Source: Candidatus Cryosericum sp.
Lineage (GTDB): Bacteria > Caldisericota > Caldisericia > Cryosericales > Cryosericaceae
Assembly (NCBI GenBank): GCA_049699855.1
Contig: JBNAWM010000002.1
Coordinates: 30,458-60,004, forward strand
Length of the DNA stretch: 29,547 nucleotides
Direction of reading: 5' to 3'
The notes beneath the pieces were generated by a model that was not told the origin of the DNA, ran no database searches, and was given only the letters and a program-made list of their open reading frames with translations. The position numbers and the translations under genes were made by a program. Below are positions 1 through 26,297 of the stretch, one piece after another (position 1 is the stretch's first letter; the number at the start of each line of letters is the position of its first letter).

Positions 1-671
1 ATCTTGGCGATAATCGGGACATGGGCTCCGTGCTGTTCCATCAATGTTCGAAGTTCGCGGACGTCATCTGCCGTGCGGACGAACGACAGGGCTACATAGT
101 CGACAGCGTTCTGGAGGCCAATGACAAGATCATGCTTATCCTTGTCGGTAATCGATGGGACGTGCAGGTCTGACTGAGGGAAGTTCACACCCTTATGGTC
201 CGATAGCACCCCTCCCTTCAGGACATCGGTGATGATAGTGTCACCTTGGATTTCACGCGCTTTCAGCCGAATCAATCCATCGTTAATAAAGATGAGTTCT
301 CCAGGTCGGACTTCACTAGTGAGGGCCGAGTAGTCTATGCTTGCAAGTTCGCTCGTTCCGTCAACACTGCGAGTGGTGAGTCCAAACACTCCTCCGGTGG
401 CAAGTTCCGTTGGTCCTTTACTGAATGTTCCAAGGCGGATCTTTGGTCCCTGCAGGTCCTGAAGGATTGCCAGGGGCAAGTCGAGTTCGGATTGGACTTT
501 CTTGACAGCAGCGATGGTTGCCACATGTTCTTCATCGCTGCCATGCGAAAAGTTGATGCGGAAAACGTTCACTCCATGCCTGGCAAGGCTGCGGATCATC
601 TCTTCCGAACCCGTTGCGGGGCCGAGTGTTGCTACAATCTTGGTGCGCTTGAACTCCATCGTACCATCCAT
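1..671 (-). CDS. pyk: Pyruvate kinase, N-terminal ~223 aa (runs off the left edge; absent from the ORF track)
   Basis: Manual translation: MDGTMEFKRTKIVATLGPAT...FRINFSHGS...ILQDLQGPKIRLG...INDGLI...SDHKGVNFP...VDYVALSFVR...IIAK, the canonical PK motifs. GGAGG lies 5 nt before the ATG at 671. Confidence 0.97.
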   Translation of the reverse strand, partial: MDGTMEFKRTKIVATLGPATGSEEMIRSLARHGVNVFRINFSHGSDEEHVATIAAVKKVQSELDLPLAILQDLQGPKIRLGTFSKGPTELATGGVFGLTTRSVDGTSELASIDYSALTSEVRPGELIFINDGLIRLKAREIQGDTIITDVLKGGVLSDHKGVNFPQSDLHVPSITDKDKHDLVIGLQNAVDYVALSFVRTADDVRELRTLMEQHGAHVPIIAK

Positions 672-740
672 ATGTTCCTCCGGTTTCGGTTCTGAGCAAT
701 GACTATTTCCTTTACATCATAGCGCAAGTGGGTTTGAGAC

Positions 741-2620: not shown

Positions 2621-3847
2621 TTACGAGGCTGGCGTTGCTTTTTTCGCTGGCTTTAGAAACTGAGGATCGACTTCCCTGGCACCGAAGAGGGCATACTTGG
2701 CACCAACCGGTCCGATCATGGTAAAGATGATGACAATCGCCAGGACGATCGTCGACAGGTAGGACAGCTCCGGAAAAATGGAGCGGGCTATGACGGCAAA
2801 TCCGATAGCGACGCCAGCCTGAGGCAGCATTGCCCATCCCAGGTACTTGGCGACAGCCGCTGGGGCCTTGACCATCCGGGCGCCCGCCCACGAGCCAAAG
2901 ACCTTGCCAAAACCGCGGAAAGCAAGATAGAAGAGCGCAACGACAGCGAATTTTGGAATCAGTGCCAGGTTGATGTCCGCTCCAGAGAAGACAAAGAACA
3001 TGAGCAGCAAGGGCACTGTCCAGGCATCTACATTCTCAAAAGTGGCGGACGGTTCGGGCGTAATGTTGGTGAACAGAGCTCCGGTGACCATGCATGCGAG
3101 AAGCGAGGAAACGCCAAGTGTTTGACTGACGCCAACTGTCGTCAGAACGATCATGATGGCAAGCAGCAGACGTTCGGACTTGGAGCGAAACCACCGTGCC
3201 ATGACTGTCATGAGAAGTCCTGTCACGGCCCCGATCGCGAGAGACAAGGCGATCTCACGCAGTGGCGCGAGGACCATGGCCGAAACACTGAGGGTGCCCC
3301 CACGCAGGAGAATGCGCATGATCACGATGCTGATGTCGAACAGGATTATGCCAACTGCGTCGTCAAAGGTGACCGCCATCAGCAGATAATTCGTGAGTGG
3401 CCCCCTGGCCTTGTACTCCTTGACCACCATGAATGTTGGAGCAGGAGCCGTGGCGGCTGCTGTTGAAGCTAGGAAGAGGGCTACGGGCATGGGATCGGGC
3501 ATGTGGGTCAGATGGAGCGCCTCGGTGGCAAGAAATCCCAGCAAGACAACTGCATAGCAGAAGACCGCTTGTACCACTGAGAGTATCAGGCCTTTTGAAC
3601 CAACTTCGCGCACGTTTTTCAGTCGAAAGGTGTCGCCGATTTCGAAGGCGATGAACCCCAGAGCAATCGTACCAACAGTGTCTCCAGCGGTGATGAATCC
3701 CTTGGGCAGGAGCTTTGAGAGGAAGACCGAAATCAACAGACCCCCTAGGATGTAGCTGAGCACCTCCGGAGAGCCAAATCTTTTCAGAACACGCGCGAGC
3801 ACCATTCCTATGACGAGAAACACAGCGATCGCGAGAACGATGTTCAT
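2621..3847 (-). CDS. Cation:proton antiporter (CPA2/NapA-like, 408 aa)
   Basis: About 12-13 hydrophobic segments; unwound-helix motif AAATAPA, FDDA acidic pair, RGFGK, and MLPQAGVAIG. ATGA overlap with the upstream gene. Confidence 0.92.
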   Translation of the reverse strand: MNIVLAIAVFLVIGMVLARVLKRFGSPEVLSYILGGLLISVFLSKLLPKGFITAGDTVGTIALGFIAFEIGDTFRLKNVREVGSKGLILSVVQAVFCYAVVLLGFLATEALHLTHMPDPMPVALFLASTAAATAPAPTFMVVKEYKARGPLTNYLLMAVTFDDAVGIILFDISIVIMRILLRGGTLSVSAMVLAPLREIALSLAIGAVTGLLMTVMARWFRSKSERLLLAIMIVLTTVGVSQTLGVSSLLACMVTGALFTNITPEPSATFENVDAWTVPLLLMFFVFSGADINLALIPKFAVVALFYLAFRGFGKVFGSWAGARMVKAPAAVAKYLGWAMLPQAGVAIGFAVIARSIFPELSYLSTIVLAIVIIFTMIGPVGAKYALFGAREVDPQFLKPAKKATPAS

Positions 3848-4227
3848 GAATGGTGCTCCCGATCAAGTTCTACGCCGTCTGCAGAAAGAGGCGCAGCAAG
3901 TCCCTCGATCCTTGTAACGGGAACGACAAACAGAATGCCGCTGTTTGGCTTGCCCAGGTCACCAGTGATCTCGTGGACAAGAGCAATGGCTTTTTCCAGC
4001 GTCTCCTCCGTCCTGATCACGGAGAAGATGGTGTGATTTTCTACACGGCTGTCGGCACCCGACAGGAGTCTCGTAAGCGTCGAGAAGATAGGTATGTCGG
4101 CAGCAAGCAGTTGCCCCATACCACTGCTGTTGATGACGGTTGCGCCGCGCACATCGATTTCAGGAAACCTCTCAAGCAGCATGCGAACGTGTTCCTCATT
4201 GTTCAGAACGACGACTAGTACATTCAT
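3844..4227 (-). CDS. PII-like (GlnB superfamily) signalling protein (127 aa)
   Basis: GATVINSSGMG (T-loop base) and GDLGKPNSGILFVVPV (B-loop/beta-4 pattern); size fits. GGAGGTG immediately upstream of the ATG at 4227. Confidence 0.8.
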   Translation of the reverse strand: MNVLVVVLNNEEHVRMLLERFPEIDVRGATVINSSGMGQLLAADIPIFSTLTRLLSGADSRVENHTIFSVIRTEETLEKAIALVHEITGDLGKPNSGILFVVPVTRIEGLAAPLSADGVELDREHHS

Positions 4228-4346
4228 AAACACCTCCGCTTCCATCGTACATCCAGGAATCTCAAAATCAGTAAGAGTCGTTCACAGTGTTCGCCATCTT
4301 CATCAGCTGGTGCAGCATGGTCTCCGTTCAGTTGAGGCAGTAAAGA

Positions 4347-5642
4347 TCACTGGAGCGACACCTCATCCGAGTCTTCATCAAAAGCCAGCAGGTTGCCGAA
4401 TCGAGCCCAGTTGATGAAGGTCGCAAAAGTGAACTCCGGATTCTCATTGGGCAGCAGTTGAGCCAGCAGATCCTGGACCTCATCATCGAGCATTACTCCA
4501 GTACGTGACGACTGAATCTCGGTGTAAACGGTCTTGAAGATGCTGAGTGTCAGAATTTGCTGTTTCCATACGACTTTCTGGTCCTCGGTGTCCATGTCTG
4601 CGAATCGGTGCCCCAGAGGGGTGAGTACTGTACGCTGTTTTGGCGTGTCGATGAAGTCAAGCATCTCTGCTGCCTTGACGATGTTGATCAAATCGCTGAA
4701 CTCCTTGCCAAATTCGTGAGCAAGGACAAAAACATCACCTTGTCCCCCGTGGGAGTCCAGGTACTCCACGAAGCTGACGACATCGCCTGAGGAGACAGGA
4801 GGGAGCGGCTCGTAGACAGGCTGAGATGGCGTTCCGACCACTGCAGGCGGAACGTCCGGCAGCTCATTGCTGGTAATGATGTCGTGCAGGTAGTCGACGG
4901 TGCTCAGAAACTCCTGGGCGCGATAGTCGCGTGGACGGGCCATCTTGTTGTTGACAATGGTCCGGATACGTCCAGGATTGGCCGAGAAGACGACGATTCG
5001 GTCGGCCATGTACACCACTTCTTTGATGTCGTGGCTGACCATGACGATCGAAGCCGGCTGGCCTTCCGCCTCGTTCCAGATATCGACCAGGTCCGCCCGC
5101 AGCGATTCGGCAGTCAGTGCGTCGATAGCACTGAAGGGTTCGTCCATGAAAAGGAGTTCCGGTTTCACGGCGAGGGCGCGGGCAATGCCGACGCGCTGTT
5201 TCATGCCGCCCGAGATCTCGCGTGGATAGGCCTCTTCAAAACCTTCAAGACCCACCATTTTGATGACTGAGGTCACGCGGTTCTGGACCTCGTCTCCTGG
5301 GAGTGCCAGTGGCACAAGAACCGATTGGATGTTTTCGCTCACCGTCATCCACGGGAACAACGCAAACATCTGGAAAACCATCGCCACACCAGGTGTCAAG
5401 CCGGTCATCTCCTTGCCGCGGGCCAGTACCCTGCCACTCGTCGGCCGTATGAGGCCGGCCAGGATACGCAGCAGGGTGGACTTTCCACAGCCAGAAGGAC
5501 CGAGCAGGCAGACGATCTCCCCTTTTCGTATTTCGAGGCTGATGTTGTCCAGTACGGTTGCCATCTTGCCACCGGGCATGGAAAAACGCTGCGTTATCGC
5601 TTCGCTTGAAAGCAAGATGGGCTGCTGTGCTGGATCTTCCAT
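4347..5642 (-). CDS. NitT/TauT-family ABC ATPase with a C-terminal AAA-associated extension (431 aa)
   Basis: Walker A GPSGCGKS, signature ISGGM, Walker B LLFMDE, H-loop VSHD, plus a ~160-aa C-terminal domain ending INWARFGNLLAFD. RBS AGGAGAG before the ATG at 5642. Confidence 0.93.
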   Translation of the reverse strand: MEDPAQQPILLSSEAITQRFSMPGGKMATVLDNISLEIRKGEIVCLLGPSGCGKSTLLRILAGLIRPTSGRVLARGKEMTGLTPGVAMVFQMFALFPWMTVSENIQSVLVPLALPGDEVQNRVTSVIKMVGLEGFEEAYPREISGGMKQRVGIARALAVKPELLFMDEPFSAIDALTAESLRADLVDIWNEAEGQPASIVMVSHDIKEVVYMADRIVVFSANPGRIRTIVNNKMARPRDYRAQEFLSTVDYLHDIITSNELPDVPPAVVGTPSQPVYEPLPPVSSGDVVSFVEYLDSHGGQGDVFVLAHEFGKEFSDLINIVKAAEMLDFIDTPKQRTVLTPLGHRFADMDTEDQKVVWKQQILTLSIFKTVYTEIQSSRTGVMLDDEVQDLLAQLLPNENPEFTFATFINWARFGNLLAFDEDSDEVSLQ

Positions 5643-5652
5643 AAGGTCTCTC

Positions 5653-7506
5653 CTACTTGCCGAGGTTGTACTGTGTGCTGGCGATGGCATATAGCCTGCG
5701 CCACAGGAAGCGGTTGATGAGAACGACCGTCAGCGACATGATGAGGATAGCTGCCGCCAGCTCTGCGTAATGGGCACCGAATGCGGCTTCGCTGATGACC
5801 GAACCAATACCCTGTGCCTTCAGGGTCTGCCCACGGAACGTGACTATTTCTGCAACTATGCTGGCGTTCCAGGCTCCACCGGTTGCTGTCACCCAGCCCG
5901 TTACGAGATAAGGGAAAATGGCGGGCAGGTAGAGGGACCAGAAGCGTTGTCTGCCAACGAGTCTGTAGCTGGCAGCAGCCTCTCTGAGATCCGAGGGAAT
6001 TGCCTGTGCTCCGGCAATGACGTTGAACAGGATGTACCACTGGGTACCGAGCAGCATAAGGATGACGCTGCCATAGTTGATGTTGACCTTCAGGAGAGCC
6101 AGAAGCAGGATGACCGCGGGAAATAGCATGGGAGCAGGAAACGATGCTGCCACCTGGACAACGGGTTGCATGATCTTCGAAAGTCGAGGGGACAGCCCGA
6201 TCCGCAAACCGGCCGGTAGTGCCCACAGCGTTCCCAGCACAATCGCAGCAGTTACTCTGGCAAGTGTCAGCAGGTCGCTTTTCAAGAGGTGCAGCCATTC
6301 ACGTGCGCTCACGGATGCCATGACGTGCAGGACCTGGACAAGTGCCACTGCGAGTCCCGCTGCCAGAACCAGGAACAGGGTTCGTGACAACATCAGGGAC
6401 AACGAAAGGTGTGTTGCTCTGGTGTCGTGGGTGGCGGGCGGCGTCGTTGACGTGAGACGTGACGTGAAGGAACGGGACTGTGTTTCCGTGGGCGGTCCGG
6501 GGTGGCGAAACCGCTTTCCGACCGCTGAAACCGCGAGTCCGAGCCATCGCAAGACGTGGGAGTGATGAAGAAGATCAAGAAACCAGGAACTCATCGTTTC
6601 CTCCTGGCTGGTGTCCTCGAGGCGAAACTTCTGTGCCCAGACAACCATTGGGCGCCACAGCAGCTGGTCCAGCGCGACGATCATCAAAACCATTGCGACG
6701 ACTGCTCCGATCATCGCCGGCACATTGCCTTTCTCGACAGCGACAGACATGTAGGACCCGATGCCGGGAAGTCTGAAGTCCCTGTTGCCAAGCTGAAAGG
6801 CCTCGGTTACCATCAAGAAGAACCATCCGCCAGCCATGCTCATCATGCTGTTCCAGATAAGGCCGACGGCGCTGTAGGGCAGTTCGACCTGAGTGAGGCG
6901 CTGCCACCAATTGAAGTGATACACGGTACCGGCTTCCTGCAAGTCTCTCGGAACTGACTTGAGCGAGTTGTAGAAGCTGAAGGTCATATTCCAAGCCTGT
7001 CCGGTGAATATCATCAGGATTGCTGCAAGCTCGAGACCGATGTTGCTGCGTGGAAAAAGGCTTACCAACGCCAGGACCACGCCTGGCATGAACCCAAGGA
7101 CGGGGATGCTTTGGAGAATGTCGAGGATCGGGACGAGCAGTTTCTCTGCGATCTGGTCTTTCGCCGCCCAGTAACCATACACGATTGTGAAGAAGAAGGA
7201 GATGCCATAGGCGACAAGCCCTCGGACAAGGGAAAAGAACGTGTACATGGGGAGTGCCCCGAACGAGAGATCGATCTGCACGGTGGGCCTGAGAACGCCT
7301 GTCCATTCACGTCCAACCTGGGCGAAGCCGTAGAACGCGCCAAGGATGCCGACAACAATGACAACATCGGCCAGCAGACCACTGTGGTATACCACCATGA
7401 GGGCACCCGACTGACCCCATACAGACGAAGAGAACAGTGGTGAGCGACGTGAACGCTCTTCGACGAGATCAGGCTCCCCATGGTCAATATCAGGCATTCC
7501 CTGCAC
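5653..7506 (-). CDS. ABC permease with two fused transmembrane domains (NitT/TauT-type, 617 aa)
   Basis: Two EAA-loop repeats (VPRDLQEAG; IPSDLREAA), motifs DILQSIPVLGF, WNSMMSMAGGWFFL and GGAWNASIVAE. RBS AGAGGAG before the GTG. Confidence 0.93.
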   Translation of the reverse strand: MQGMPDIDHGEPDLVEERSRRSPLFSSSVWGQSGALMVVYHSGLLADVVIVVGILGAFYGFAQVGREWTGVLRPTVQIDLSFGALPMYTFFSLVRGLVAYGISFFFTIVYGYWAAKDQIAEKLLVPILDILQSIPVLGFMPGVVLALVSLFPRSNIGLELAAILMIFTGQAWNMTFSFYNSLKSVPRDLQEAGTVYHFNWWQRLTQVELPYSAVGLIWNSMMSMAGGWFFLMVTEAFQLGNRDFRLPGIGSYMSVAVEKGNVPAMIGAVVAMVLMIVALDQLLWRPMVVWAQKFRLEDTSQEETMSSWFLDLLHHSHVLRWLGLAVSAVGKRFRHPGPPTETQSRSFTSRLTSTTPPATHDTRATHLSLSLMLSRTLFLVLAAGLAVALVQVLHVMASVSAREWLHLLKSDLLTLARVTAAIVLGTLWALPAGLRIGLSPRLSKIMQPVVQVAASFPAPMLFPAVILLLALLKVNINYGSVILMLLGTQWYILFNVIAGAQAIPSDLREAAASYRLVGRQRFWSLYLPAIFPYLVTGWVTATGGAWNASIVAEIVTFRGQTLKAQGIGSVISEAAFGAHYAELAAAILIMSLTVVLINRFLWRRLYAIASTQYNLGK

Positions 7507-7540
7507 GGACTCTCCTCTTCATCGCAGTTGAGTATACTTG

Positions 7541-7569
7541 ATGGTAGCACCGTTGCGCACTGCCTGCAA
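7541..7569 (-). promoter_or_regulatory. Putative promoter of the ABC operon
   Basis: TTGCAG-N17-TACCAT with an extended -10 TGn. Confidence 0.5.
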
Positions 7570-7637
7570 CATTGCTGCGGCTCGCCTGATCACTTGACGG
7601 CGGTGGAGGAGCTGCACAATTGATGAGAGATGGTGCC

Positions 7638-7665
7638 TTGACGTGCGAGTGCACTCTCCTATAAT
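7638..7665 (+). promoter_or_regulatory. Putative strong promoter of the trk operon
   Basis: TTGACG-N16-TATAAT, 48 nt upstream of the first trkA ATG. The spacer contains the palindrome GAGTGCACTC. Confidence 0.7.
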
Positions 7666-7713
7666 ACGTCTCTTGTGAATGGTCCCTTGGGGGTCCATGA
7701 GGAGATGTGAGGT

Positions 7714-8370
7714 ATGTATATCATTATCGTTGGATGCGGGCGCCTGGGCTCTCAGCTTGCCACCATGCTGTCTGAAGAAGGGCACGACGTGGCAGTGGTT
7801 GACCGCAATCCTGACAATTTCAATCGCCTGCGCGATGAGTTCACCGGTGCCACGATTGCAGGCGTCGGATTCGATACTGCGGTGCTCCAGTCGGCTGGGA
7901 TCGAACGGGCGGATGGTTTTGCGGCAGTCAGTGACAGCGACAACGTAAACATCATGGCTGCGCAGGTCGCCAAGACGATTTTCAAGGTCCCTATGGTGAT
8001 CGCTCGAGTCTTCGACCCTGTCAAGGGAGACACCTATCGCGCTCTTGGGCTCGAAACGGTCTGTCCCACGACATCCGCGGCCAACATCATTTACGGCAGG
8101 TTTCTCATGCGAAATGAGTCGTCTCATTTCATTCTTCCCGGCGGGGGAATTGAGCTGGTGGAAGTCGTTTTTGGGACAGGTGTTCCTGCGAGAACGGTTG
8201 CTGACCTGGAAATGCTGGATGATTTCAAAGTCATCTCACTCACCCGTCAGGGAGAAACGATGTTTCCGAAGGCGATTGATGTTCTGGAGGCCGGCGACCG
8301 ATTGCTGGTCGCGCTCCATGTTTCTGACCTTGCCAAGGTCAGCGCGATCTTTGATCAGGACAAGAGGTGA
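7714..8370 (+). CDS. trkA: TrkA/KtrA-family RCK gating subunit, copy 1 (218 aa)
   Basis: Rossmann motif IIVGCGRLG, AGIERAD, DNVN, IARV, and a C-terminal RCK_C region (LEAGDRL). Confidence 0.93.
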   Translation: MYIIIVGCGRLGSQLATMLSEEGHDVAVVDRNPDNFNRLRDEFTGATIAGVGFDTAVLQSAGIERADGFAAVSDSDNVNIMAAQVAKTIFKVPMVIARVFDPVKGDTYRALGLETVCPTTSAANIIYGRFLMRNESSHFILPGGGIELVEVVFGTGVPARTVADLEMLDDFKVISLTRQGETMFPKAIDVLEAGDRLLVALHVSDLAKVSAIFDQDKR

Positions 8371-8373
8371 TGC

Positions 8374-9033
8374 ATGTACATTGTCATTGCTGGCGGCGGG
8401 AAAGTCGGTTCCTATCTGGCTCACCTGCTTGTTGACAAAGGATACGACGTTGCCGTCATCGAGCAGGATGCTGCTGCTTGCAAGGTCCTGTCGGACTGGG
8501 GGAAGGCACTGGTCATCAATGGAGACTGCTGCGACCTGAGTACGCTTATCGATGCTGGCATTGAGAAGACTGATCGCTTTGCGGCGGTCACCGGCGATGA
8601 TGCGAACAACCTGGTCGCGTGCCAGCTGGCCAAGGTCAGATTCAATGTGCCCCTGACGACGGCACGGATCAACGACCCTCGAAACGAGGACGTCTTTCAC
8701 AAGTCCGGCGTCGACTTTGCGTTGAACTCCACGAACATCCTTGCGACGGTCATCGAGGAGGGGATCATCGTCAATGACCTGATTCCTCTCGTGTCGCTCG
8801 CCAAGGGGAAAGCAATGCTTGTTGAGTTGATGGTTGCCGATGGGTCTGCGGCTGTGGGCAAGACACTGCGTGAATTGACCTGGCCTCGTGGCTCGGTTGT
8901 TGCATCGATCGTTCACAAGGGTGAGGTGATTTTCCCCAGGGGAGCGACCATGCTGAATGCTGGAGACGTTGTCGTGGGCCTGGTGGCTCCCGAAGCCGAA
9001 GCTCAGTTCAGGCGCGTATTTGGTCAGGAGTAG
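8374..9033 (+). CDS. trkA: TrkA/KtrA-family RCK gating subunit, copy 2 (219 aa)
   Basis: VIAGGGKVG, GDCCD, VTGDDANNLVAC, ARINDPRN, and RCK_C SAAVGKTLREL...IFPRGATMLNAGD. Starts 3 nt after copy 1. Confidence 0.94.
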   Translation: MYIVIAGGGKVGSYLAHLLVDKGYDVAVIEQDAAACKVLSDWGKALVINGDCCDLSTLIDAGIEKTDRFAAVTGDDANNLVACQLAKVRFNVPLTTARINDPRNEDVFHKSGVDFALNSTNILATVIEEGIIVNDLIPLVSLAKGKAMLVELMVADGSAAVGKTLRELTWPRGSVVASIVHKGEVIFPRGATMLNAGDVVVGLVAPEAEAQFRRVFGQE

Positions 9034-9037
9034 CGTC

Positions 9038-9175
9038 ATGACTCTCAGCAGCCGTATTAGCCGCAGAATGGCTCGTCGCAATGAGTTTCTGGGAATGCTC
9101 ACCGAGATTGCCTTTACGTGCGGCCTCATCGGATTGGGTTTCCTTGTTTCCTGGCTGTTTTTTCTGGGACGCTGA
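9038..9175 (+). CDS. Small single-pass membrane protein (45 aa) inside the trk operon
   Basis: MTLSSRISRRMARRNEFLGMLTEIAFTCGLIGLGFLVSWLFFLGR. AGGAG 7 nt before the ATG; fills the trkA-trkH gap exactly (4-nt and 3-nt spacers); basic N-terminus followed by a hydrophobic helix. Confidence 0.75.
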   Translation: MTLSSRISRRMARRNEFLGMLTEIAFTCGLIGLGFLVSWLFFLGR

Positions 9176-9178
9176 CCG

Positions 9179-10702
9179 GTGATTCGCAGAATCTGGCGAG
9201 AGGACTTTCGTATTGTAGGCTACTACACTGGCCGAGTGACCATCGGTGTCGGCTTGCTCATGATCGTACCGATGGTGACCAGTCTGGCGTTTCGCGAATG
9301 GGCCTCCGCTCTCGACTTTGCCATTTCCATTGTGCTCACGCTTCTTGTGGGATATGTGCTCGCGCTGATCTCCCGCACAAGGAACACTCCTGGCCTCACT
9401 CACGCCATGGTGATCGCTGCGGGATCGTGGCTGATTGCCATGGTGCTCTCGGGCGTTCCCTATGTGCTGAGCGGGCATATGGATTCATTCCTCGACGCGT
9501 GTTTCGACACTATGAGCGGTTTCACCACGACGGGCCTGTTCCTCATACAGGACATCGACCACATCTCACAGGGTCTGAACATGTGGCGGCACCTGCTCAC
9601 GTATGTCGGCGGGCAGGGGATCGTCGTGCTTGCCTTGACCTTTCTCATCGGCTCAAGCGGAGGGGCATTCAAGATTATGGTCGGAGAGGGCAAGGAGGAG
9701 AAGCTGGAACCCAACGTACGGCATATCGCGGTGCTCATATGGCGCATCTCGCTCATTTATCTGGGCATCGGTACCGTTGCACTCGGCCTGATTGCGATGG
9801 CGGGTGGCATCAAACCATATCTTGCGTTCTTTCATGGTGCCTACATTTTCATGTCTGCCTGGAGTACCGGAGGTTTTGCACCATACAGCCAAAATATGTT
9901 GTACTACCACAGCGGTGCCATGGAAATCGTCAGCATGATCTTCTTTGTTCTCGGGTCGTACAATTTTGCCCTGCACTATGCCGTCTGGCGTGGAAATCGC
10001 AGAGAGATCCTGCGGAACATCGAGATTGTCTCTTTCACCATCACCGTCCTGACGACGTTCTCGATCGTCTGCCTCGCACTCATTCAGCGTGGCGTGTACC
10101 CGAACGCAATTTCATTGTTTCGGCGCGGATTCTTCCAGCTGATCTCGGGCCATACGACGACCGGCCAGTCCAATATCTACGCGCGGACGTTTGTGCGTGA
10201 GTGGGGCCCTCTGGGCATGCTGGCGACGACTATTGCCATGGCCATCGGCGCAAGCGCCGCTTCGACCGGCGGTGGCTTCAAGGGGCTGCGCATGGGCATT
10301 ATTGTCAAAGGTATCGCGATGGACATCAGGAAGCTGCTTTCGCCAGAGCGTGCGGTTGTCAGTGGGCATTACCATCACTTGCATGACAACTCACTTGCCG
10401 ACGGAGTGGTCAAGTCTGCGGCTGTCATCGTTGTCCTGTACGTGCTGATCTATGCCGTGGGTGCTGTCGTTGGCATGGCCTATGGATATCCCATGGCAGA
10501 TGCGTTTTTCGAATCCGTGTCGGCTGGCAGCAACACCGGACTTTCGTGCGGAATTACGCAGGCCAGCATGCCCACATTGCTCAAGATCGTTTATATGTTC
10601 GAGATGTGGATGGGACGTCTGGAGTTTCTGTCTGTGTTCACACTGTTCGGGTTCATCGCCACAAGTTTCCGGAGCATGAGACTCAGGAAGGCGGCTGTAT
10701 GA
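9179..10702 (+). CDS. trkH: TrkH-family K+ uptake membrane subunit (507 aa)
   Basis: Four pore-loop motifs SGFTTTG, SAWSTGGF, SGHTTTG and SAGSNTG, plus STGGGFK and C-terminal GRLE. Confidence 0.96.
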   Translation: MIRRIWREDFRIVGYYTGRVTIGVGLLMIVPMVTSLAFREWASALDFAISIVLTLLVGYVLALISRTRNTPGLTHAMVIAAGSWLIAMVLSGVPYVLSGHMDSFLDACFDTMSGFTTTGLFLIQDIDHISQGLNMWRHLLTYVGGQGIVVLALTFLIGSSGGAFKIMVGEGKEEKLEPNVRHIAVLIWRISLIYLGIGTVALGLIAMAGGIKPYLAFFHGAYIFMSAWSTGGFAPYSQNMLYYHSGAMEIVSMIFFVLGSYNFALHYAVWRGNRREILRNIEIVSFTITVLTTFSIVCLALIQRGVYPNAISLFRRGFFQLISGHTTTGQSNIYARTFVREWGPLGMLATTIAMAIGASAASTGGGFKGLRMGIIVKGIAMDIRKLLSPERAVVSGHYHHLHDNSLADGVVKSAAVIVVLYVLIYAVGAVVGMAYGYPMADAFFESVSAGSNTGLSCGITQASMPTLLKIVYMFEMWMGRLEFLSVFTLFGFIATSFRSMRLRKAAV

Positions 10703-11217
10703 AGAGGTTGTTGGCTGCCCTGATCGTTATCAGTTTGGCAATGCTGATTGTTCGTCCCGCATCTGCACGTGCTGGACAGCCGCCCCTGCTGTCGACGACG
10801 GACCTTGTCGAAAACTCCTCCAAGTGGGATGGGAAGATGGTATCGTTCAAGGGAGAGGTCCTGCAGGACCTTATGGTTCGCAAGGATGGGACATGGATGA
10901 ACTTGTCGGATGGCGATAACACGGCCATGGGGGTCTTTGTGCCGAAGGGTGTGGCTATGCCGGTCATTTCACACACTGAGACCTACCGTACTGTCGGAGA
11001 CATCGTGCTTATCACGGGGGTCTTTCATCGCGCGTGCGTCCAGCACGAGGGTGAGACCGATATCCATGCAGTGAGCGTGACGGTTGTGCAGATCGGTTCA
11101 ACGAAGGCGAATCCGATCCAGCCCGGCAGGGTTATCGCGCTGGTGATTTTGAGCGTCCTTCTGGGTCTGGTGATGTGGCTGTATTACCGCAAGCCCCTGG
11201 GTGGGGCAAGTCACTGA
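10699..11217 (+). CDS. Exported, C-terminally anchored protein with an OB-fold-like domain (172 aa)
   Basis: ATGA overlap with the trkH stop. Signal peptide MKRLLAALIVISLAMLIVRPASARA, OB-like strands DGKMVSFKGEV and GDIVLITGVF, C-terminal TM followed by YYRK. The fold call is by eye. Confidence 0.75.
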   Translation: MKRLLAALIVISLAMLIVRPASARAGQPPLLSTTDLVENSSKWDGKMVSFKGEVLQDLMVRKDGTWMNLSDGDNTAMGVFVPKGVAMPVISHTETYRTVGDIVLITGVFHRACVQHEGETDIHAVSVTVVQIGSTKANPIQPGRVIALVILSVLLGLVMWLYYRKPLGGASH

Positions 11218-11240
11218 GGGGTGTCCTTGGTTTAGGCTGG

Positions 11241-12836
11241 TCAGGCTTCGAATGCAATACTCCCCGCCACAACAGTCGCAAGAACCTTTGTGGAACGTAT
11301 TGTTTCTGGAACGGCAGCTTGAAGGATGTCGCTTGACAGCACGACAAGATCTGCGTCCTGTCCCTCGACAATGTTCCCTCTCTGACTCTCCAACCCAAGC
11401 GCTCCCTGTGGAGCGGTGGTATATGCCGACAAGGCCTCGGGCAAACTGATGCACTCGTCGGCTTGGTACGGTTGCTCTCCTCGTCTGGTACGAAATGCGG
11501 CAAAAGCAATGCCTTTGAGAGCGTCAGGATCCTCCACGGGAGCGTCAGATCCAAAGACGAGGTCAGCTCCTGATCGCAGCAACGAATTGAAAGCATACGA
11601 GCCCGGATGAGGCTGAATGAACGTTGCTCTCAGTTTGCCGATGTCGAGATCCAGATGCGCCGGCTGAACCGACGCAGTGATACCAAGATCCGCAAACCGT
11701 GGAATGTCTTGTGGCCGCAGGAACTGCGCGTGCTCTATGCGGTGATGGGCGTGCCCTTTGGAAGTGGCGGCGCCAGCCTGCTCGAATGCGTCCAGCACGT
11801 CCCTGTTCGCCTGATCGCCGATGGCGTGGATCCATACCCAGAGGCCGTTTTCATTGGCTTTCCGAAATTGGTCTGACAGCCGTTCCACTGACTCATAGGT
11901 GTGATAGCCATGATTGCCGGGTTCGCCTGGCCAGGCCTGCTGCATGTAGGCAGTGCGCGAGCCGAGTGAACCATCTGCGAAGATCTTGATACCACCGACG
12001 CGCAAAAAATCGGAACCGAATCCCGACCGGAGTCCGACGGCGATGGCGGCATCGAGGTTGCTTGCACCCACCGCCTGCCAGATGCGTATGCGGGGTTCCC
12101 CCTCCATGGCAGAGATCAACGCTTGAAGCTCCGGAAAGATATCGTAGTCCATATTGCAGCAGGAGGCAAAACCGAGAGAGAGCAGTTTCTGGATTGCTCC
12201 GTGGAGGGCCGTAAGCCGTTCTGCAAGATCCGGAGCTGGAATGCGAGACAGGACCCAATTCTGCGCGGCGTCGCGAACGATACCGACAGGGCCGTCACTG
12301 TCCCGGGGTACCAGGTCCGGACCGAATGATTCGGCGGTCCAGAGGCCCGTGGCCTTGAGGGCGGCAGTGTTGAGCCAGAGCGAGTGATAGTCCTTGCGAT
12401 TGAGGACGACTGGAGAATTAACGTACAGGTCGTCGAGTTGGTGTCGAGTCGGGCTGGCAGACCAGAGTTCATCATCCCAGCAGTCGCCCTTGATCCAGGA
12501 ACCATCATCGGGCCGTCCGGCAGTGCGGATCTGCTCCAGCGCTGCATCCAGCGATCTGGCCCCGTTCAGATTGATGCTCAGCAGTGAACTCCCATACAGA
12601 TTCAGATGAAGATGTGAATCGGTGAATGCTGGGTAACAGGTGGCTCCCGGCTGTCCGGCAAAGTCCATGACCCGCGCATTGGTACGCGAGGCCATCGCAG
12701 CGATGTCGGAGGAGCTTCCAATGCGTGCAATGACCCCATTGCTCACGTACAGGGCGTCGCCAGACTGTATCCATCTGCCTTGACGCGACGACATGACGCT
12801 GACATGCAGCAAAGCGATTTCTTCAGATTGTGTCAC
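11241..12836 (-). CDS. Metal-dependent amidohydrolase, YtcJ/NfdA-like (Amidohydro_3; ~531 aa)
   Basis: PAFTDSHLH, KIFADGSLGSRTA, IHAIGD, HRIEHAQ, GSDAPV. AGGAGGA precedes the GTG at 12836. Confidence 0.93.
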   Translation of the reverse strand: MTQSEEIALLHVSVMSSRQGRWIQSGDALYVSNGVIARIGSSSDIAAMASRTNARVMDFAGQPGATCYPAFTDSHLHLNLYGSSLLSINLNGARSLDAALEQIRTAGRPDDGSWIKGDCWDDELWSASPTRHQLDDLYVNSPVVLNRKDYHSLWLNTAALKATGLWTAESFGPDLVPRDSDGPVGIVRDAAQNWVLSRIPAPDLAERLTALHGAIQKLLSLGFASCCNMDYDIFPELQALISAMEGEPRIRIWQAVGASNLDAAIAVGLRSGFGSDFLRVGGIKIFADGSLGSRTAYMQQAWPGEPGNHGYHTYESVERLSDQFRKANENGLWVWIHAIGDQANRDVLDAFEQAGAATSKGHAHHRIEHAQFLRPQDIPRFADLGITASVQPAHLDLDIGKLRATFIQPHPGSYAFNSLLRSGADLVFGSDAPVEDPDALKGIAFAAFRTRRGEQPYQADECISLPEALSAYTTAPQGALGLESQRGNIVEGQDADLVVLSSDILQAAVPETIRSTKVLATVVAGSIAFEA

Positions 12837-13576: not shown

Positions 13577-13708
13577 GAAGCTCCTCCCGTTCTGCACCAT
13601 TGTGCTTGTTGTCATGTATACTGTACCGGAGATGGGACATGAGTCCACTCGTGGAACTGTGAACCTGCCGCGTTTTGTTGAGCGGCGTTGGCATGCCAGG
13701 AGGCTCGG

Positions 13709-14770
13709 TTGATTGATGTCGGGATTGTTACTACGATTGCAGAGTTTGCGCTGCTGGAACCGTTCTGGGATGGCATGGTCGAACAGAGCGCCACTGCAAC
13801 CTGTCATTCAACATTTGAATGGCTGTTCACATGGTGGAAGCACTTCGGTACCGGGGAACGGCAGCTGCTGCTTGTGGCTGCCTATGAAGATGACGCGCTG
13901 GTTGGAGTGGGTCCATTTTACGTTGGAGGTGGAGTGGTCGAGCCCAGAAGTCTTCATTTCCTTGGCCAAGGGTTATCCGACTATGCCGATGTCATTGCCC
14001 CATCGAACCGTGTGGACATCATGGAGGCTCTGTGGTCGGCAATTCTTGAATACAAGGGCGCATGGAATAGCCTGGACCTTGAGGAGATCTGCGATCAATC
14101 AATGAGCATCCCTGTTCTGGGCCGCAAACTTGCGTTGGCTCACGTTGCTGCAACCTGGCACCAGACGGTCAGGTGCCCGTATTTGCCGATCCGGACAGGT
14201 TGGCAAGAGTTCTACAGCACCATGGGCAAAGGTTTTCGGCACGAGGTACGGAACAAGCAGAACAGATGGATCAGACTGGCTCAAGAGAGAGGAGGCCTGG
14301 CCGAGCTCACGTACGTTGATCGCCGCGACGCTGACAGCGTACTTGTTGATGAGATCATCGCTTTGTCTGCGAAGCGCCAGTTGGCCGATGGGCATCGAAG
14401 CCCTTTTCTGGTTCATCCTGACGTTGAATTCTTGAGGGAAGTGCTGCCGCTCATGGGCCGCCGGAACCAGCTCCGGATCGGGGAGCTCCGGAGTGGTGCC
14501 ACGTTGCTTGCGTTTGTCCTGAGTTTCTTCTGGAAAGGTATTACGTACACGTGGAACACACAATATGACCCAGACCTGACGGAGTTTTCGCTGGGACGCA
14601 TCGTGCTGGTAAGAGTTGCAGAACAGGCGTTTTCCGAGGGGTGTACGGAGCTCAATTTCATGCGTGGCGAGGAGCCGTACAAATTCGAGTGGACCAGTGC
14701 GTTCAAAACTAATCTGGCGTTGAGATCGTGTGAACTGATTGGGCAGTCTGGCCCTGGAAGGAGTTCCTGA
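13709..14770 (+). CDS. GNAT-family protein, CelD/BcsL (Acetyltransf_6)-like (~353 aa)
   Basis: TFEWLFTWWKHFG, LSDYADVI, YDPDLTEFSLG, NFMRGEEPYKFEWT. AGGAGG 5 nt before the TTG at 13709. Confidence 0.85.
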   Translation: MIDVGIVTTIAEFALLEPFWDGMVEQSATATCHSTFEWLFTWWKHFGTGERQLLLVAAYEDDALVGVGPFYVGGGVVEPRSLHFLGQGLSDYADVIAPSNRVDIMEALWSAILEYKGAWNSLDLEEICDQSMSIPVLGRKLALAHVAATWHQTVRCPYLPIRTGWQEFYSTMGKGFRHEVRNKQNRWIRLAQERGGLAELTYVDRRDADSVLVDEIIALSAKRQLADGHRSPFLVHPDVEFLREVLPLMGRRNQLRIGELRSGATLLAFVLSFFWKGITYTWNTQYDPDLTEFSLGRIVLVRVAEQAFSEGCTELNFMRGEEPYKFEWTSAFKTNLALRSCELIGQSGPGRSS

Positions 14771-14772
14771 TT

Positions 14773-16413
14773 ATGCGACAGAAGGTCATCGTCACTGGGC
14801 ATAAGAACCCCGATACAGATTCTATCTGTTCTGCGCTTGGGTATGCGTTCTATAAGAACCGCACAGACCCATCTCGTGTCTACCTCGCGGTGCGGGGAGG
14901 AGAACTGAACGATGAGACGCGTTTTGTTCTGACGCGCTTTGGGTTTCGGACTCCACCTCTTCTGAGGTCTCTCATGCCTCAGGTCCAGGATATACCACGA
15001 AAACGGCTTGTCACGGTCAGTCCCGGGACGAGGGTAGGCAAGGCTGCAATTCTCATGAAAGAAAATCATATCCATTCTTTGCCAGTGGTGGACAACACGT
15101 CGGGGGTCAAGGGAGTTGTTGATGCTGTCGATATAGCGACTGCCTACGCCGATCAACTGGAGCATGCAGACACGCTGCCCTACGGGGTGGAAGTGGATAC
15201 TCTGGTGCGGCAGTTGGAAGCGAGGATTCTGGTGCAGAAGCGTGAGACTGCGCAGCTGAAGGGCCGGCTGCTGGTCGTCACGGGTTCGGTCGGACGCCTT
15301 TCCTCGGGAGTCGGCGACGTTGCCATAGTCATCTCTGATGGCATTCCGTCTCCAGGGATTCTGGAAGCGTGCTCGGCGGCTTCGACGCTTATCATTACAG
15401 GTGGACCGGTGGTAGCGAAGATCGCGACACTATGGCCACCGCGCCTGGATCTCGTTCTCGAGACAGATATGACAGTCACTCAGGCTCTGCGCATGCTCTG
15501 GTCCGCCATCCCGGTTTCTGCTTTCATGGAGGGAACTGTTCCCCTTCTGAGCATGACAGATACGCTGGAACGGGCAAAAAAGGCTGTCCTTGACTCGTCA
15601 TCCCGTTGCGCGGTCGTTCTCGACAGCCAACATCATCCCGTCAACATTGTCACTCGGTCCGACCTGATACGCTTTGCACGCAAGAAGGTCATTCTTGTGG
15701 ATCACAATGAGACGCTTCAGGCTGTCGACGGCGTCGAGGAAGCAGACATTCTTGAAATCATTGATCATCACCGCGTTGGAGACATTTCGACATTTCGCCC
15801 AATTTATTTCCACAACGAGCCGGTCGGCAGTACATGCACGATCGTTGCTGACCTGTGTACAGAGAATGGGGTGTTTCTGCCGAAGCCGGTGGCTGGCATC
15901 CTCCTTTCGGGCATTCTCTCCGATACCATGAACCTCAATCTCTCAACAACGACGCCAAAGGATGTTCGAGCAGTGAGGCGGCTGGCGGCAGTCATCGGCC
16001 TCGACGCCGAGGTGTATGGCCTTGAGCTTCTGCAGAACGGATCCGTGATGTTCAAAGGACTTCCTGCAAGTGAAGTTCTCATGCGAGACTTCAAGGAGTT
16101 CGATCTGTTCGACACGCGCATTGGCGTTTCCCAGGCGGTCGTGTTCTCGTTCGACCAGATTCGAGAGCGGGAAGCGGAGTTCAAGCAGACGATGCGTGAT
16201 GCGCGTGTTCGCATGGGGTTGGCCATGGTCGCATTTATGGCCACGGATCCGCTGAGCAAGAGATCATATCTGATCGTTTCGGGACCGCCCGACGCTTTCC
16301 AGGAGGCCTTTGGCGTGACGGTGGAAGATGGACATGCCATCCTCGATGGAGTGCTCTCTCGCAAGAAGGACTTCATTCCACCTGTGGCCGAGGTACTGTC
16401 TCGGTATGCGTAG
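14773..16413 (+). CDS. ppaC: Family II Mn-dependent inorganic pyrophosphatase with a CBS-DRTGG-CBS insert (546 aa)
   Basis: GHKNPDTDS, VDHNE, IDHH, ILSDT, DFKEF and SRKK catalytic motifs, with a ~235-aa insert containing two CBS repeats and LIITGG. Confidence 0.93.
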   Translation: MRQKVIVTGHKNPDTDSICSALGYAFYKNRTDPSRVYLAVRGGELNDETRFVLTRFGFRTPPLLRSLMPQVQDIPRKRLVTVSPGTRVGKAAILMKENHIHSLPVVDNTSGVKGVVDAVDIATAYADQLEHADTLPYGVEVDTLVRQLEARILVQKRETAQLKGRLLVVTGSVGRLSSGVGDVAIVISDGIPSPGILEACSAASTLIITGGPVVAKIATLWPPRLDLVLETDMTVTQALRMLWSAIPVSAFMEGTVPLLSMTDTLERAKKAVLDSSSRCAVVLDSQHHPVNIVTRSDLIRFARKKVILVDHNETLQAVDGVEEADILEIIDHHRVGDISTFRPIYFHNEPVGSTCTIVADLCTENGVFLPKPVAGILLSGILSDTMNLNLSTTTPKDVRAVRRLAAVIGLDAEVYGLELLQNGSVMFKGLPASEVLMRDFKEFDLFDTRIGVSQAVVFSFDQIREREAEFKQTMRDARVRMGLAMVAFMATDPLSKRSYLIVSGPPDAFQEAFGVTVEDGHAILDGVLSRKKDFIPPVAEVLSRYA

Positions 16414-16519
16414 ACAGCAGTGAATGGTCTGCAGGGCAGCGGGGGCGTTGCTGAGGATCCCGTTCCCCTGGAGCATCAGCAAAAAAGTGGCATGAGCAGG
16501 CATGAATGGGAGGAACGAG

Positions 16520-18076
16520 TTGGAAAACGGGTACATTCTTTCGATTGACTGTGGCACGCAGAGCGTACGAGGGTTGATATTCGATGATTGTGGTCATCTC
16601 GTGGCCAAGCACAAGGTGGAATTCGAGCCTTATATGTCCCCAGTTCCGGGTTACGCAGAGCACCCGGCAGAGGACTACTGGCGGGACACCTGCCTGGCTC
16701 TGCAGGAACTGAAACGCGAGTCTCCGGGGGCGTGGAGCCGCATATCGGCAGTGGCGGTAACGACCCAGCGCGACACGGTGGTCGCTCTTGATGCGGATGG
16801 CGTTCCGCTTCGACCCGCGATTGTCTGGCTGGATCAGCGCATGGCACGCTGTGAAAAGCCGATGCCTCTTGCGGACCGGCTTCAATTCAGGCTTGTTGGA
16901 ATGACCACAGCCGTCGAGATTACGAGACGTAAGGGCAAAGACAATTGGATGGCCGAAAATGAGCCCGAGTTGTGGGCACGCACAAGAAAATGGCTTCTGC
17001 TGTCCGGGTACTTCTCATTTCGACTTACCGGCAGGTATGTGGACTCCGTTGCGTCTCAGATTGGTCATACGCCGTTTGACTATCATACCCGAACGTGGCC
17101 AAGGAGTGACAGCAGCTGGCGCTGGCACATGTGTAGTGCGCGGCGTGACCAGATGCCGGAGCTCGTTGAAGCGGGAGAACAAATGGGGACAGTTTCGTCC
17201 AGGGCAGCCAGCGAGACCGGCATTCCCGAGGGGACGCCGGTCATTGCTGCCGGTTCCGACAAGGGATGTGAAACACTGGGTGTGGGATGCGTGGATGAGA
17301 CAAGCGTGAGCTTGAGTTTTGGCACGACAGCGACTGCCCAGACGACATCGGCGAGGTACTTCGAACCGATACCATTCATGCCACCATATCCCGCGAGTAT
17401 TAAGAAAAGTTACAATCCGGAGGTCGAGATATTTCGAGGCTACTGGATGGTAAGCTGGTTCAAGAAAGAGTTTGCAGGCCGGGAAGCGTTGGAGGCAGAG
17501 CAGCGCGGTGTTCCTCCGGAAGTCGTGCTTGACGAGCATCTTGAGGATGTGCCTCCAGGAGCGCAAGGCTTGATGCTTCAACCGTACTGGGGGGCCGGTC
17601 TCAAGATGCCTGAGGCGAAAGGCGCGATGATCGGGTTCGGCGACGTTCACACCAGAGCGCACATCTACCGGGCGATTATCGAAGGAATCGGATATGGTCT
17701 GCTTGAGGGAGTCGAGCGCATTGAGCGCAAGAGCGGGAAGAAGGTAAGCAGGATCATGGTCTCAGGAGGGGGCTCCCAGAGCGATGCCATCTGCCAGATC
17801 ACTGCTGATCTCTTCAATCGGCCGGTGGTGCGAAGTGAGACGTATGAGACATCGGGTCTGGGTGCCGCCATCAACGGTTTCGTCGGAATTGGTGTGTATG
17901 CGACACACGAAGAGGCGGTCAAGAAAATGGTTCACTGGGACAGCACATTCCTGCCGCGGCCGGAAGCAGCGCATATCTACCACGAGCTGTACGAGGGGGT
18001 CTACAAGCGTATCTATCAGGCACTGCGCCCGCTGTACCGCGAGATTCAAAGGATAACGGGATATCCCGACATCTGA
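16520..18076 (+). CDS. FGGY-family carbohydrate kinase (~518 aa)
   Basis: SIDCGTQSVR, AIVWLDQR, GSDKG, SFGTTA, RAIIEG, SGGGSQS, GLGAA. GGGAGG before the TTG at 16520. Confidence 0.92.
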   Translation: MENGYILSIDCGTQSVRGLIFDDCGHLVAKHKVEFEPYMSPVPGYAEHPAEDYWRDTCLALQELKRESPGAWSRISAVAVTTQRDTVVALDADGVPLRPAIVWLDQRMARCEKPMPLADRLQFRLVGMTTAVEITRRKGKDNWMAENEPELWARTRKWLLLSGYFSFRLTGRYVDSVASQIGHTPFDYHTRTWPRSDSSWRWHMCSARRDQMPELVEAGEQMGTVSSRAASETGIPEGTPVIAAGSDKGCETLGVGCVDETSVSLSFGTTATAQTTSARYFEPIPFMPPYPASIKKSYNPEVEIFRGYWMVSWFKKEFAGREALEAEQRGVPPEVVLDEHLEDVPPGAQGLMLQPYWGAGLKMPEAKGAMIGFGDVHTRAHIYRAIIEGIGYGLLEGVERIERKSGKKVSRIMVSGGGSQSDAICQITADLFNRPVVRSETYETSGLGAAINGFVGIGVYATHEEAVKKMVHWDSTFLPRPEAAHIYHELYEGVYKRIYQALRPLYREIQRITGYPDI

Positions 18077-18113: not shown

Positions 18114-21198
<3,085 letters not shown>

Positions 21199-21237: not shown

Positions 21238-21681
21238 TCAGTGACTTCCGGGCAAGAGATTGCGGAGCCATGTTCCCAGTGCCCTCGCGTCAAGTGGAGG
21301 CAGGAATGCAAAGAGAGGCTCCATCAAGGGATAGATCCGGCTCTTGTTCACCAGTGTGGCCGACCATGAGACCGGGAGAAGATGCACAACAAATCCCAGC
21401 AAGAGCGAGGCAATGAGGATCTTGACCAGTGAAGAGAGGATGATAGCCGGAACTGCGATCAGGACATACAGCAGCAGGTAGGTGAGGATGTAATAGACGA
21501 CTGTCGCCAGACCCTGATTTGGCAGTTTGAGAAAGGTGACGTAGTAAGGAGTGAGTGATGCCGTCAGGAGCGCGGAAAGAGCTATAGCAACAAGCGATAT
21601 TCCTATCCTGCCCTGTTTCGCAAATAGGTCTCGAGCAACAATGACTGCTATGAGAATGGCAAGGAAGGTATCGAACAGCAC
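21238..21681 (-). CDS. Small multi-TM membrane protein, CvpA-like (147 aa)
   Basis: About four hydrophobic segments, N-terminal FD-x-hydrophobic start and a C-terminal KSRIYPL amphipathic tail reminiscent of CvpA. GGAGG before the GTG. It lacks the usual DRxLG motif, so the family call is tentative. Confidence 0.55.
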   Translation of the reverse strand: MLFDTFLAILIAVIVARDLFAKQGRIGISLVAIALSALLTASLTPYYVTFLKLPNQGLATVVYYILTYLLLYVLIAVPAIILSSLVKILIASLLLGFVVHLLPVSWSATLVNKSRIYPLMEPLFAFLPPLDARALGTWLRNLLPGSH

Positions 21682-21893: not shown

Positions 21894-22490
21894 GTGGGGT
21901 ATTTCATCGATCTGCTGTGGTTGTACGTGACACGTCCCGCCGAGGGCATGCGCCAAATCCGCAAGCGCCCATCCGTACTGGTGGCGATGATCGCGCTGCT
22001 GTTGACGGGTGTCATCGACGCTGTGAGTTTTCGCCTGCTTGACGTTGCAAGCATTCTCAAATCGGCCGGATTTACGAGTCAGATGATTGAGAATGTGGCA
22101 AAGGTTCAGCAGGCGCCAGGAACCTTTTGGACGTTTGTAACGGAGCCATTCCTGTTAGTGATGCTGTCCACTGCGATCATCGATGCTGTTGCGCGGTTGG
22201 TCTGGAAGCGCAGTGCAGTGCCGGCCTTATATACGTCTCTCAGTATCTCAGGATTGGTAGGAGCTGCATTGCGCCTGGCCGGCCTGTTGACAGAGGGAAT
22301 CGCGGGTGGCGTGATCCTTGATGTGTGCGCCTATGGGGCCATGGTCTACGTGTTTGTGATCGGCGTTCTGGCCGTGAAGTCCTTCTACGAAAAGAGCACG
22401 GTACGGGCTGTCGCCCTGTATCTCCTGCCGACGTTGCTCGGGATTGGCCTTCTCGTTCTCCTCACTATTGCGGCAGGCGGAGCAGCCTGA
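21894..22490 (+). CDS. Yip1-like integral membrane protein (~198 aa)
   Basis: N-terminal VTRPAEGMRQIRKRPS pattern, about five TM segments, and a penultimate KSFYEKSTVRAV loop typical of prokaryotic Yip1 domains. AAGGAG 6 nt before the GTG at 21894. Confidence 0.7.
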   Translation: MGYFIDLLWLYVTRPAEGMRQIRKRPSVLVAMIALLLTGVIDAVSFRLLDVASILKSAGFTSQMIENVAKVQQAPGTFWTFVTEPFLLVMLSTAIIDAVARLVWKRSAVPALYTSLSISGLVGAALRLAGLLTEGIAGGVILDVCAYGAMVYVFVIGVLAVKSFYEKSTVRAVALYLLPTLLGIGLLVLLTIAAGGAA

Positions 22491-24613: not shown

Positions 24614-24657
24614 CGGGTATACCGGTTTGGTTTCGGAGAGCGGGGGATACCTGCGTC

Positions 24658-24685
24658 TTGAAGTGTGCACGCATGCGTCTACAAT
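24658..24685 (+). promoter_or_regulatory. Putative promoter of nfeD-SPFH
   Basis: TTGAAG-N16-TACAAT; the spacer contains the palindrome ACGCATGCGT. Confidence 0.55.
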
Positions 24686-24732
24686 GAGTTTATGCCGCAT
24701 GACAAGCAAGATCCTGATATGGGGAGGTGGTC

Positions 24733-25161: not shown

Positions 25162-25170
25162 GAGGTACTC

Positions 25171-26130: not shown

Positions 26131-26151
26131 TACTCTGCTTGGAGTGTGAAC

Positions 26152-26184
26152 AGCCTCCGGTCGGAAGCGGCCGGGGGCTTTTTT
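26152..26184 (+). terminator. Intrinsic terminator of nfeD-SPFH
   Basis: 12-bp stem AGCCTCCGGTCG/CGGCCGGGGGCT (two G-U pairs), GAAG loop, then a T-run. Confidence 0.88.
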
Positions 26185-26216
26185 CTTCAGGATTCCTTAC
26201 AAAAGCGACTGAGGTG

Positions 26217-26244: not shown

Positions 26245-26297
26245 GAGTGATAGCCGCACATGCGACAAATCGAGTTTAAACACGGGGAGGTTAGAGT

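Follow-up and report, generated by a model that had tools for sequence, protein, structure and literature searches.

Potassium channels of the Trk/Ktr type are ring-plus-pore systems. In the 29,547-nucleotide stretch of Candidatus Cryosericum DNA analysed here (contig JBNAWM010000002.1; hereafter the window), the pore gene trkH follows two single-RCK ring genes, trkA1 and trkA2, and stands between a gene for a small membrane peptide and a gene for an OB-fold protein predicted to be exported. We find that this module is a real, widespread Trk variant, apparently undescribed, and that its new part is the peptide-trkH-OB core, a split ring being already known. The peptide and the OB protein are likely accessory subunits that form one K+-uptake Trk channel together with TrkH, TrkA1 and TrkA2, a reading of the sequence evidence to which we give a probability of roughly 55%. 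If true, this would be a new architecture: in a branch with members in three phyla or more, two further membrane proteins are retained more faithfully than the gating ring.

The peptide and OB genes are linked to trkH across phyla

A census of 93 Caldisericota genomes gave 63 matches to the window TrkH, 54 of them close (at least 42% identity) and 9 distant (25–30%), and 51 matches to a profile of the OB protein. Five of the close trkH genes lacked their C-terminal end and one was cut by a contig end; the OB gene lay directly behind each of the 48 readable ones (48/48), compared with 0 of 8 readable distant genes. Read in the opposite direction, 48 of the 51 OB matches stood behind trkH; of the other three, one began its contig and two, both weak, looked like lipoproteins from another OB family. 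Outside Caldisericota, linkage was read in the TrkH-to-OB direction only: metagenome contigs were scanned with TrkH patterns alone, and of 589 confirmed matches the 80 best (GC 30–71%) were taken as loci. Once 14 loci with short downstream DNA were dropped, the OB gene was found 3′ of trkH in 64 of 66 (the misses being L131 and L148, the latter with a TrkH that is 34% identical and groups with other TrkH proteins), and once 11 with short or unreadable upstream DNA were dropped, the peptide gene was found 5′ of trkH in 67 of 69 (misses, L134 and L137). The trio stays linked down to 39% identity in TrkH and 22% in the OB protein, and TrkH and OB distances correlate (Spearman 0.66). Source labels of the members include Clostridiaceae, Omnitrophota and a Butyrivibrio cluster, with Bacillota among the phyla.

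The trkA genes adjoin the module in only 41 of 56 metagenome loci, and the conserved core is therefore peptide-trkH-OB. The initial annotation had proposed a five-gene variant in which the two extra genes are dedicated to TrkH. Their attachment to this TrkH subtype was strongly borne out, being tighter across phyla than that of trkA; the five-gene order, by contrast, had to be reduced to a conserved unit of three. Residue counts out of 72 given below refer to a set of paired loci comprising the window and 71 loci kept from 86 complete ones after near copies were removed. Covariation between proteins in this set (mutual information with average product correction; effective number of sequences 33) reached top z values of 7.4 for the peptide and 8.7 for the OB protein, inside the 7.1–9.1 span of shuffled pairings, and so gave no signal, the sequences being too few. 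Two high-GC loci (L142 and L143) have an ordinary trkA-trkH pair directly 5′ of the five-gene module.

The small upstream reading frame encodes a membrane peptide

In close and distant relatives alike, an open reading frame (ORF) of 33–71 amino acids, whose product has a single hydrophobic helix, runs up to the start of trkH. This ORF is a real gene, beyond chance. Among 15 close relatives its differences fall mostly in third codon positions (646, 383 and 1,236 at positions one to three), and the ratio of non-synonymous to synonymous differences (pN/pS) over the helix is 0.34, uncorrected and from pooled pairs. In control scans, 1,014 long ORFs of the source genome yielded 5 with a similar hydrophobic small ORF just upstream, none showing the Glu pattern, and 126 long ORFs in the metagenome loci yielded 3, one of them showing it. 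Within the peptide, E23 is kept in 70 of 72 and G19 in 63 of 72 paired loci; where a locus held several candidate ORFs the Glu-bearing one was favoured, most loci offering a single candidate. A Pfam scan of the 72 peptides yielded nothing better than E 0.02, no sequence relatives of the peptide were found in the PDB, and an Atlas search with it returned sub-0.9 leads only. Because its N terminus is basic, we infer an N-in orientation, which suggests that the Glu lies near the inner face.

The downstream gene encodes a predicted outward-facing OB-fold protein

The model of the OB protein (predicted local distance difference test score 94.6) consists of a helix at residues 2–17, OB strands at 47–131 and a helix at 142–164. 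Its best fold matches are OB domains (Z 12.0, root mean square deviation 2.8, 90 residues aligned); CcmE and YgiW score Z 10.2 each. In the paired loci the OB proteins have a C-terminal hydrophobic helix (71/72), a hydrophobic N terminus (67/72) and a basic tail, and the protein is predicted to be exported, anchored by its C-terminal helix and facing outward; the anchor of KdpC is N-terminal. This predicted topology fits the intramembrane peptide and outside-facing protein suggested at the outset. Residues E53, G100 and G107 are invariant, and C113, H116, D121 and H123, found in 133, 134, 140 and 135 of 145 family members, form a loop that we regard as a putative metal site. A profile search collected 1,321 clusters at 50% identity, whose members are named hypothetical or, in Atlas clusters drawn mainly from Omnitrophota, Actinomycetota and Bacillota, ‘DNA-binding protein’. 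No sequence relatives of the OB protein were found in the PDB, Pfam listed no KdpC family and no passed cut-off for 15 OB members, KdpC is absent among the fold matches listed for the model, and the protein was not found in the viral contigs and plasmids searched. Four OB proteins (L037, L059, L062 and L066) have a 60-residue N-terminal insertion and are missing the loop Cys. The weak profile matches L151 and L152 come from a separate OB family, one of lipoproteins marked by a CxxGCW motif.

The pore is a divergent TrkH with an intact filter

The pore protein passes the Pfam TrkH cut-off (8.6e-36) and scores below the curated NCBIfam cut-offs (TIGR00933, 212 versus 331; NF008020, 131 versus 866), and is therefore assigned to a divergent subfamily. 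Its model agrees best with Vibrio TrkH, the N-terminal helices included (template modelling (TM) score 0.78, 23–24% identity), and less well with KtrB (TM 0.58–0.71) and KdpA (TM 0.55–0.58); the Pfam scan gave no KdpA match for it. The extra N-terminal helices typical of TrkH are present, the profile aligning to TrkH from position 9 and to KtrB only from 78–88. One filter glycine per M1-P-M2 repeat (G119, G232, G329 and G454) is invariant in 72 of 72 paired loci, the D3 intramembrane loop, GASAASTGGGFK, aligns to the Vibrio loop, and the last helix keeps R480 in 71 and E482 in 72 of 72. Residues conserved in the subtype that differ in Vibrio TrkH include H128, H138, H244, R315, H325, K377 and K412. 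Three of these lie in predicted outer loops (H128, 72/72; H244, 71/72; R315, 71/72), and H325 of the third pore helix (66/72) is likewise subtype-specific.

On a quick tree with long branches meeting, members of the subtype lie together to one side of a branch whose support is just 67; a single origin of the subtype is thus not proven. One locus (L049, contig C4 of genome G052) holds the sole module in family f3, in 1 of 26 genomes; its TrkH is nearest to that of Cryosericum (57–59%), a possible transfer, and has lost R315 and E249, as its OB protein has lost C113, D121 and H123.

TrkA is split between two single-RCK genes

The RCK partner with a GxGxxG motif that is expected for Trk is present here as two adjacent, distinct single-RCK genes, as in the TM1088A/B type. 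Both products carry TrkA_N (Pfam 3.8e-27 in TrkA1, 2.4e-26 in TrkA2) together with TrkA_C; they are 32% identical to each other, and TrkA2 matches the structures of TrkA (4j9u) and TM1088B (3l4b). In nearly all of the 42 loci in which both motifs are readable the GCG-type copy comes first, and the motifs are kept. A hetero-octameric ring made from two single-RCK genes has been solved for Thermotoga TM1088A/B, and two-subunit Trk is predicted there to be common (PMC4380455); the split TrkA ring is thus not new.

Several Caldisericota loci consist of peptide-trkH-OB with no adjacent trkA. In five such genomes that were checked, TrkA_N genes were found elsewhere in all five, as a tandem pair in three. 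Five loci (L079, L085, L102, L117 and L129) begin with a short TrkA of only some 135 amino acids, like Thermotoga TM1088A; L079 and L129 have a small gene 5′ of this short copy, with a TPR in L079.

Kdp-type regulators flank the module in several lineages

A KdpD-type kinase lies within 4 kb of the module in 22 of the 80 metagenome loci, a kdpA remnant in one further, and in 13 of the 15 metagenome loci lacking trkA a KdpD-type kinase adjoins. In the subset scanned, flanking kinases and response regulators scored best against KdpD and KdpE models, under the cut-offs. On the quick tree the kdpDE-flanked cases are spread over three or more separate groups, and this recurrence of KdpD/E-type regulators beside the module in three lineages supports a role in K+ uptake. 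In two Caldisericota genomes that are 97% and 95% complete (G026 and G038) the only KdpD found is the one behind the module, and KdpA was not found. Neither KdpA nor KdpD was found in the source genome, and the Cryosericum copy is probably constitutive; that genome has a second SKT-family gene, KtrB-like and with a distant RCK gene (G000:C22:5076-7073).

Some arrangements are unusual. In L093, L096, L111 and L128, which lie in a clade beside an Omnitrophota-labelled locus, a shortened KdpD-type kinase of about 345 amino acids (DUF4118 membrane domain, HisKA and HATPase, with the KdpD N-terminal domain missing) lies two genes 5′ of the peptide and is followed by a KdpE-type regulator and then by peptide-trkH-OB. 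In L089 a kdpA piece and an apparent kdpB start (918-2194) end just 5′ of trkA-trkA-peptide-trkH-OB, a picture that would fit insertion of the module into a kdp operon in decay; L089, like L098, has a second trkA pair downstream on the opposite strand.

A proposed role for the two extra proteins

Our best reading is that the two extra proteins are KdpF- and KdpC-like by analogy, not by homology. A TrkH dimer would conduct K+ through the intact four-glycine filter, as expected from its family, and a mixed TrkA1/TrkA2 ring would gate the pore from the cytoplasm by reading ATP/ADP, as in Vibrio TrkHA and Thermotoga TM1088A/B. The peptide may lie against TrkH with its G19/E23 face; its buried Glu would then pair with a basic residue that is specific to the subtype and close to the inner face, for which K377 and K412 are candidates, and the peptide may stabilize or assemble the pore, as is thought for KdpF. 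The exported OB domain, tethered through the C-terminal helix, would be placed next to the outer mouth of the filter and act there as a static cap, increasing affinity or stability in the way that has been proposed for KdpC. Modules flanked by kdpD/kdpE would be induced by low K+.

Several observations weigh against this proposal. Neither extra protein matched the KdpC or KdpF family models (15 OB members and 72 peptides, a weak test for short peptides). The 80 metagenome loci include near kin, so that their counts measure tightness of linkage and are not independent trials; among them L131 has the peptide without an adjacent OB gene, and L134 and L137 have the OB gene without a peptide directly upstream. 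Three peptides (L091, L095 and L133) are without the Glu, and the C/H/D/H loop is present at only 52, 57, 61 and 55 of 72 paired OB proteins, having been lost in whole lineages. TrkH-OB fusions and long fused OB forms were looked for and none was found, which is a weak test. Last, 11 of the 12 Caldisericota genomes that bear KdpA also carry the module; a strict replacement of Kdp by the module was rejected on this count.

The rival that survives best, an unlikely one in our estimate, makes the two proteins biogenesis factors that insert, fold or protect TrkH, stay outside the working channel and affect neither affinity nor gating. Linkage and topology fit this equally well, and the fold matches include the periplasmic OB proteins CcmE and YgiW, but the conserved outer-loop residues H128, H244 and R315 would suit a lasting interface, and TrkH and KtrB complexes of known structure do without such factors. 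We consider less probable still the initial annotation's idea of an outside sensor, here extended to a second gate: the loop of the OB protein would bind a metal or sense pH or redox and so open or close the outer mouth, and the peptide Glu would couple protons to K+ entry. The wide conservation of the loop in the family, the buried Glu and the subtype-specific H325 all point this way; against it, the loop has been replaced in whole lineages that retain the operon, and an outer gate had earlier been proposed in KdpC too, which was then found not to move (PMC6255902).

A pore for some cation other than K+ (Na+, NH4+ or a metal), with the OB protein as the outer binding protein of that cation, seems very unlikely: the divergence of TrkH, H325 with the putative metal loop, and a second SKT-family gene that could supply K+ uptake would allow it, whereas the invariant filter glycines and the kdpD/E-type flanks in three lineages speak for K+. 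There is hardly any room for the extras as co-regulated passengers, the small ORF serving only to couple translation of trkH (whose start, 3 nucleotides after the peptide stop, lacks a clear Shine-Dalgarno sequence) and the OB protein having its own role such as nucleic-acid binding (its top fold matches are nucleic-acid-binding OB domains, and Atlas clusters carry the corresponding name), since a coupling ORF would need neither a conserved Glu nor a membrane helix, and the OB gene stays with trkH while trkA and all other neighbours change and its product is predicted to lie outside the cytoplasm.

The accessory-subunit reading can be extended to a bolder one, which we hold only tentatively and think rather doubtful. 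The module would then be a third widespread bacterial K+-uptake architecture, a five-subunit Trk with convergently gained KdpF- and KdpC-like subunits, in which a metal-binding OB cap and the Glu peptide make a low-affinity pore high-affinity or proton-coupled. In several anaerobic lineages it would also have displaced the Kdp ATPase as the target of KdpD/KdpE control.

Comparison with known systems

The module shares with Vibrio parahaemolyticus TrkH-TrkA (PDB 3pjz, 4j9u and 6v4j-l; PMC6987127) the TrkH fold, the filter glycines, the intramembrane loop, the GRLE motif and RCK partners; it differs in having TrkA split into two single-RCK genes and in two further conserved membrane genes. Thermotoga maritima TM1088A/TM1088B/TM1089 (PDB 3l4b; PMC4380455) likewise pairs adjacent single-RCK proteins with a TrkH partner. 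There, TM1088A has 143 amino acids compared with 218 in TrkA1, some relatives of which have a short first copy, and neither a peptide nor an OB gene is mentioned in the accessible text (PMC4380455).

Like KdpFABC (PMC6255902), the module would join two further subunits to a pore of the SKT family, namely a peptide that spans the membrane once, as KdpF does, and a protein near the filter that faces outward on a single anchor, as KdpC does; kdpDE-type genes are linked to it in many loci. Unlike KdpFABC, the operon has no P-type ATPase, its pore is TrkH-like, RCK proteins are present and the OB anchor is C-terminal. The work on KdpFABC describes KdpF as a lipid-like single spanner and KdpC as immobile between states, thought to be static and to raise affinity or stability (PMC6255902).

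CcmE and YgiW (BOF) have an OB fold outside the cytoplasm, as predicted for the OB protein here, but identity to them is 13–14%, there is no family match, no cytochrome c maturation genes lie nearby, and their fold scores tie with those of many cytoplasmic OB domains. A possible identity of the OB protein with clostridial KdpX was considered and dropped, a search for it yielding nothing of use. KtrE, an extra subunit of Ktr, is not known to be an OB-fold or a one-helix protein. Extra subunits such as SapD (TrkE) and KtrE also show that Trk/Ktr may need more than ring and pore; SapD is an ABC-type ATP-binding protein (PMC9898762), and neither of them resembles the two extras here. In the literature searched, with most subscription journals outside its scope, no description of TrkH with these two genes was found. 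The 1,321 clusters of the OB family, labelled ‘hypothetical’ or ‘DNA-binding’ in databases, gain a context from the module, as does the peptide, which belongs to no known family, and the role of KdpC- and KdpF-like subunits for an SKT pore becomes testable in a simple, ATPase-free channel with members in culturable groups (Clostridiaceae and Butyrivibrio labels).

Operon layout and genomic surroundings

Features of the Trk operon in the window
Feature	Position	Strand	Description
Promoter-like site, sigma-70-type	7638-7665	+	TTGACG-16-TATAAT; 11/12 consensus; 48 nt 5′ of first ATG
trkA1	7714-8370	+	218 aa; single-RCK subunit, GCGxxG type
trkA2	8374-9033	+	219 aa; single-RCK subunit, GGGKVG type
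Peptide gene	9038-9175	+	45 aa; single-pass membrane peptide, G19-x3-E23 face, no known family
trkH	9179-10702	+	507 aa, GTG start; pore subunit, divergent subtype
OB gene	10699-11217	+	172 aa; ATGA overlap with trkH stop
OB protein layout			Signal-peptide-like N terminus; OB domain ~27-136; C-terminal membrane helix 142-164; loop C113-x2-H116-x4-D121-x-H123

On re-reading, all five ORFs and their spacing (3, 4, 3 and −4 nucleotides) were as the initial annotation had described them, and the unit indeed runs up to a convergent amidohydrolase gene that ends at 11241. Of the strong promoter claimed for it, what stands is an 11/12 consensus match that is the single promoter-like site in 7400-11400; the count of sites does not exceed that in shuffled DNA (1.9 under a loose rule). 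The number alone is thus within chance, yet consensus match and position fit, and we treat the site as a candidate promoter. No terminator was found on the + strand at the operon, and an Rfam scan of the window gave no match. RNA evidence came from one run, with a single 235-nucleotide contig within trkH, which is uninformative about the transcript.

Divergent from the Trk promoter, at 2621-7506 (−), lie genes for an ABC permease with a duplicated domain, an ATPase with AAA_assoc_C, a 133-residue ORF and a Na+/H+ exchanger-family protein; given the exchanger and ABC genes, the surroundings can be read as an ion-homeostasis neighbourhood. Four window ORFs had no Pfam match at 1e-6: 246-695 (+), 1563-2288 (−), 3844-4245 (−) and 21238-21681 (−). 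The stretches 13688-18076 (+), 18114-21106 (−) and 22325-29063 (+) hold ordinary genes, namely those for a GNAT protein, a CBS-DHH pyrophosphatase-like protein, an FGGY kinase, guaA, guaB, UvrD/PcrA, NfeD with Band 7, and a peptide ABC transporter.

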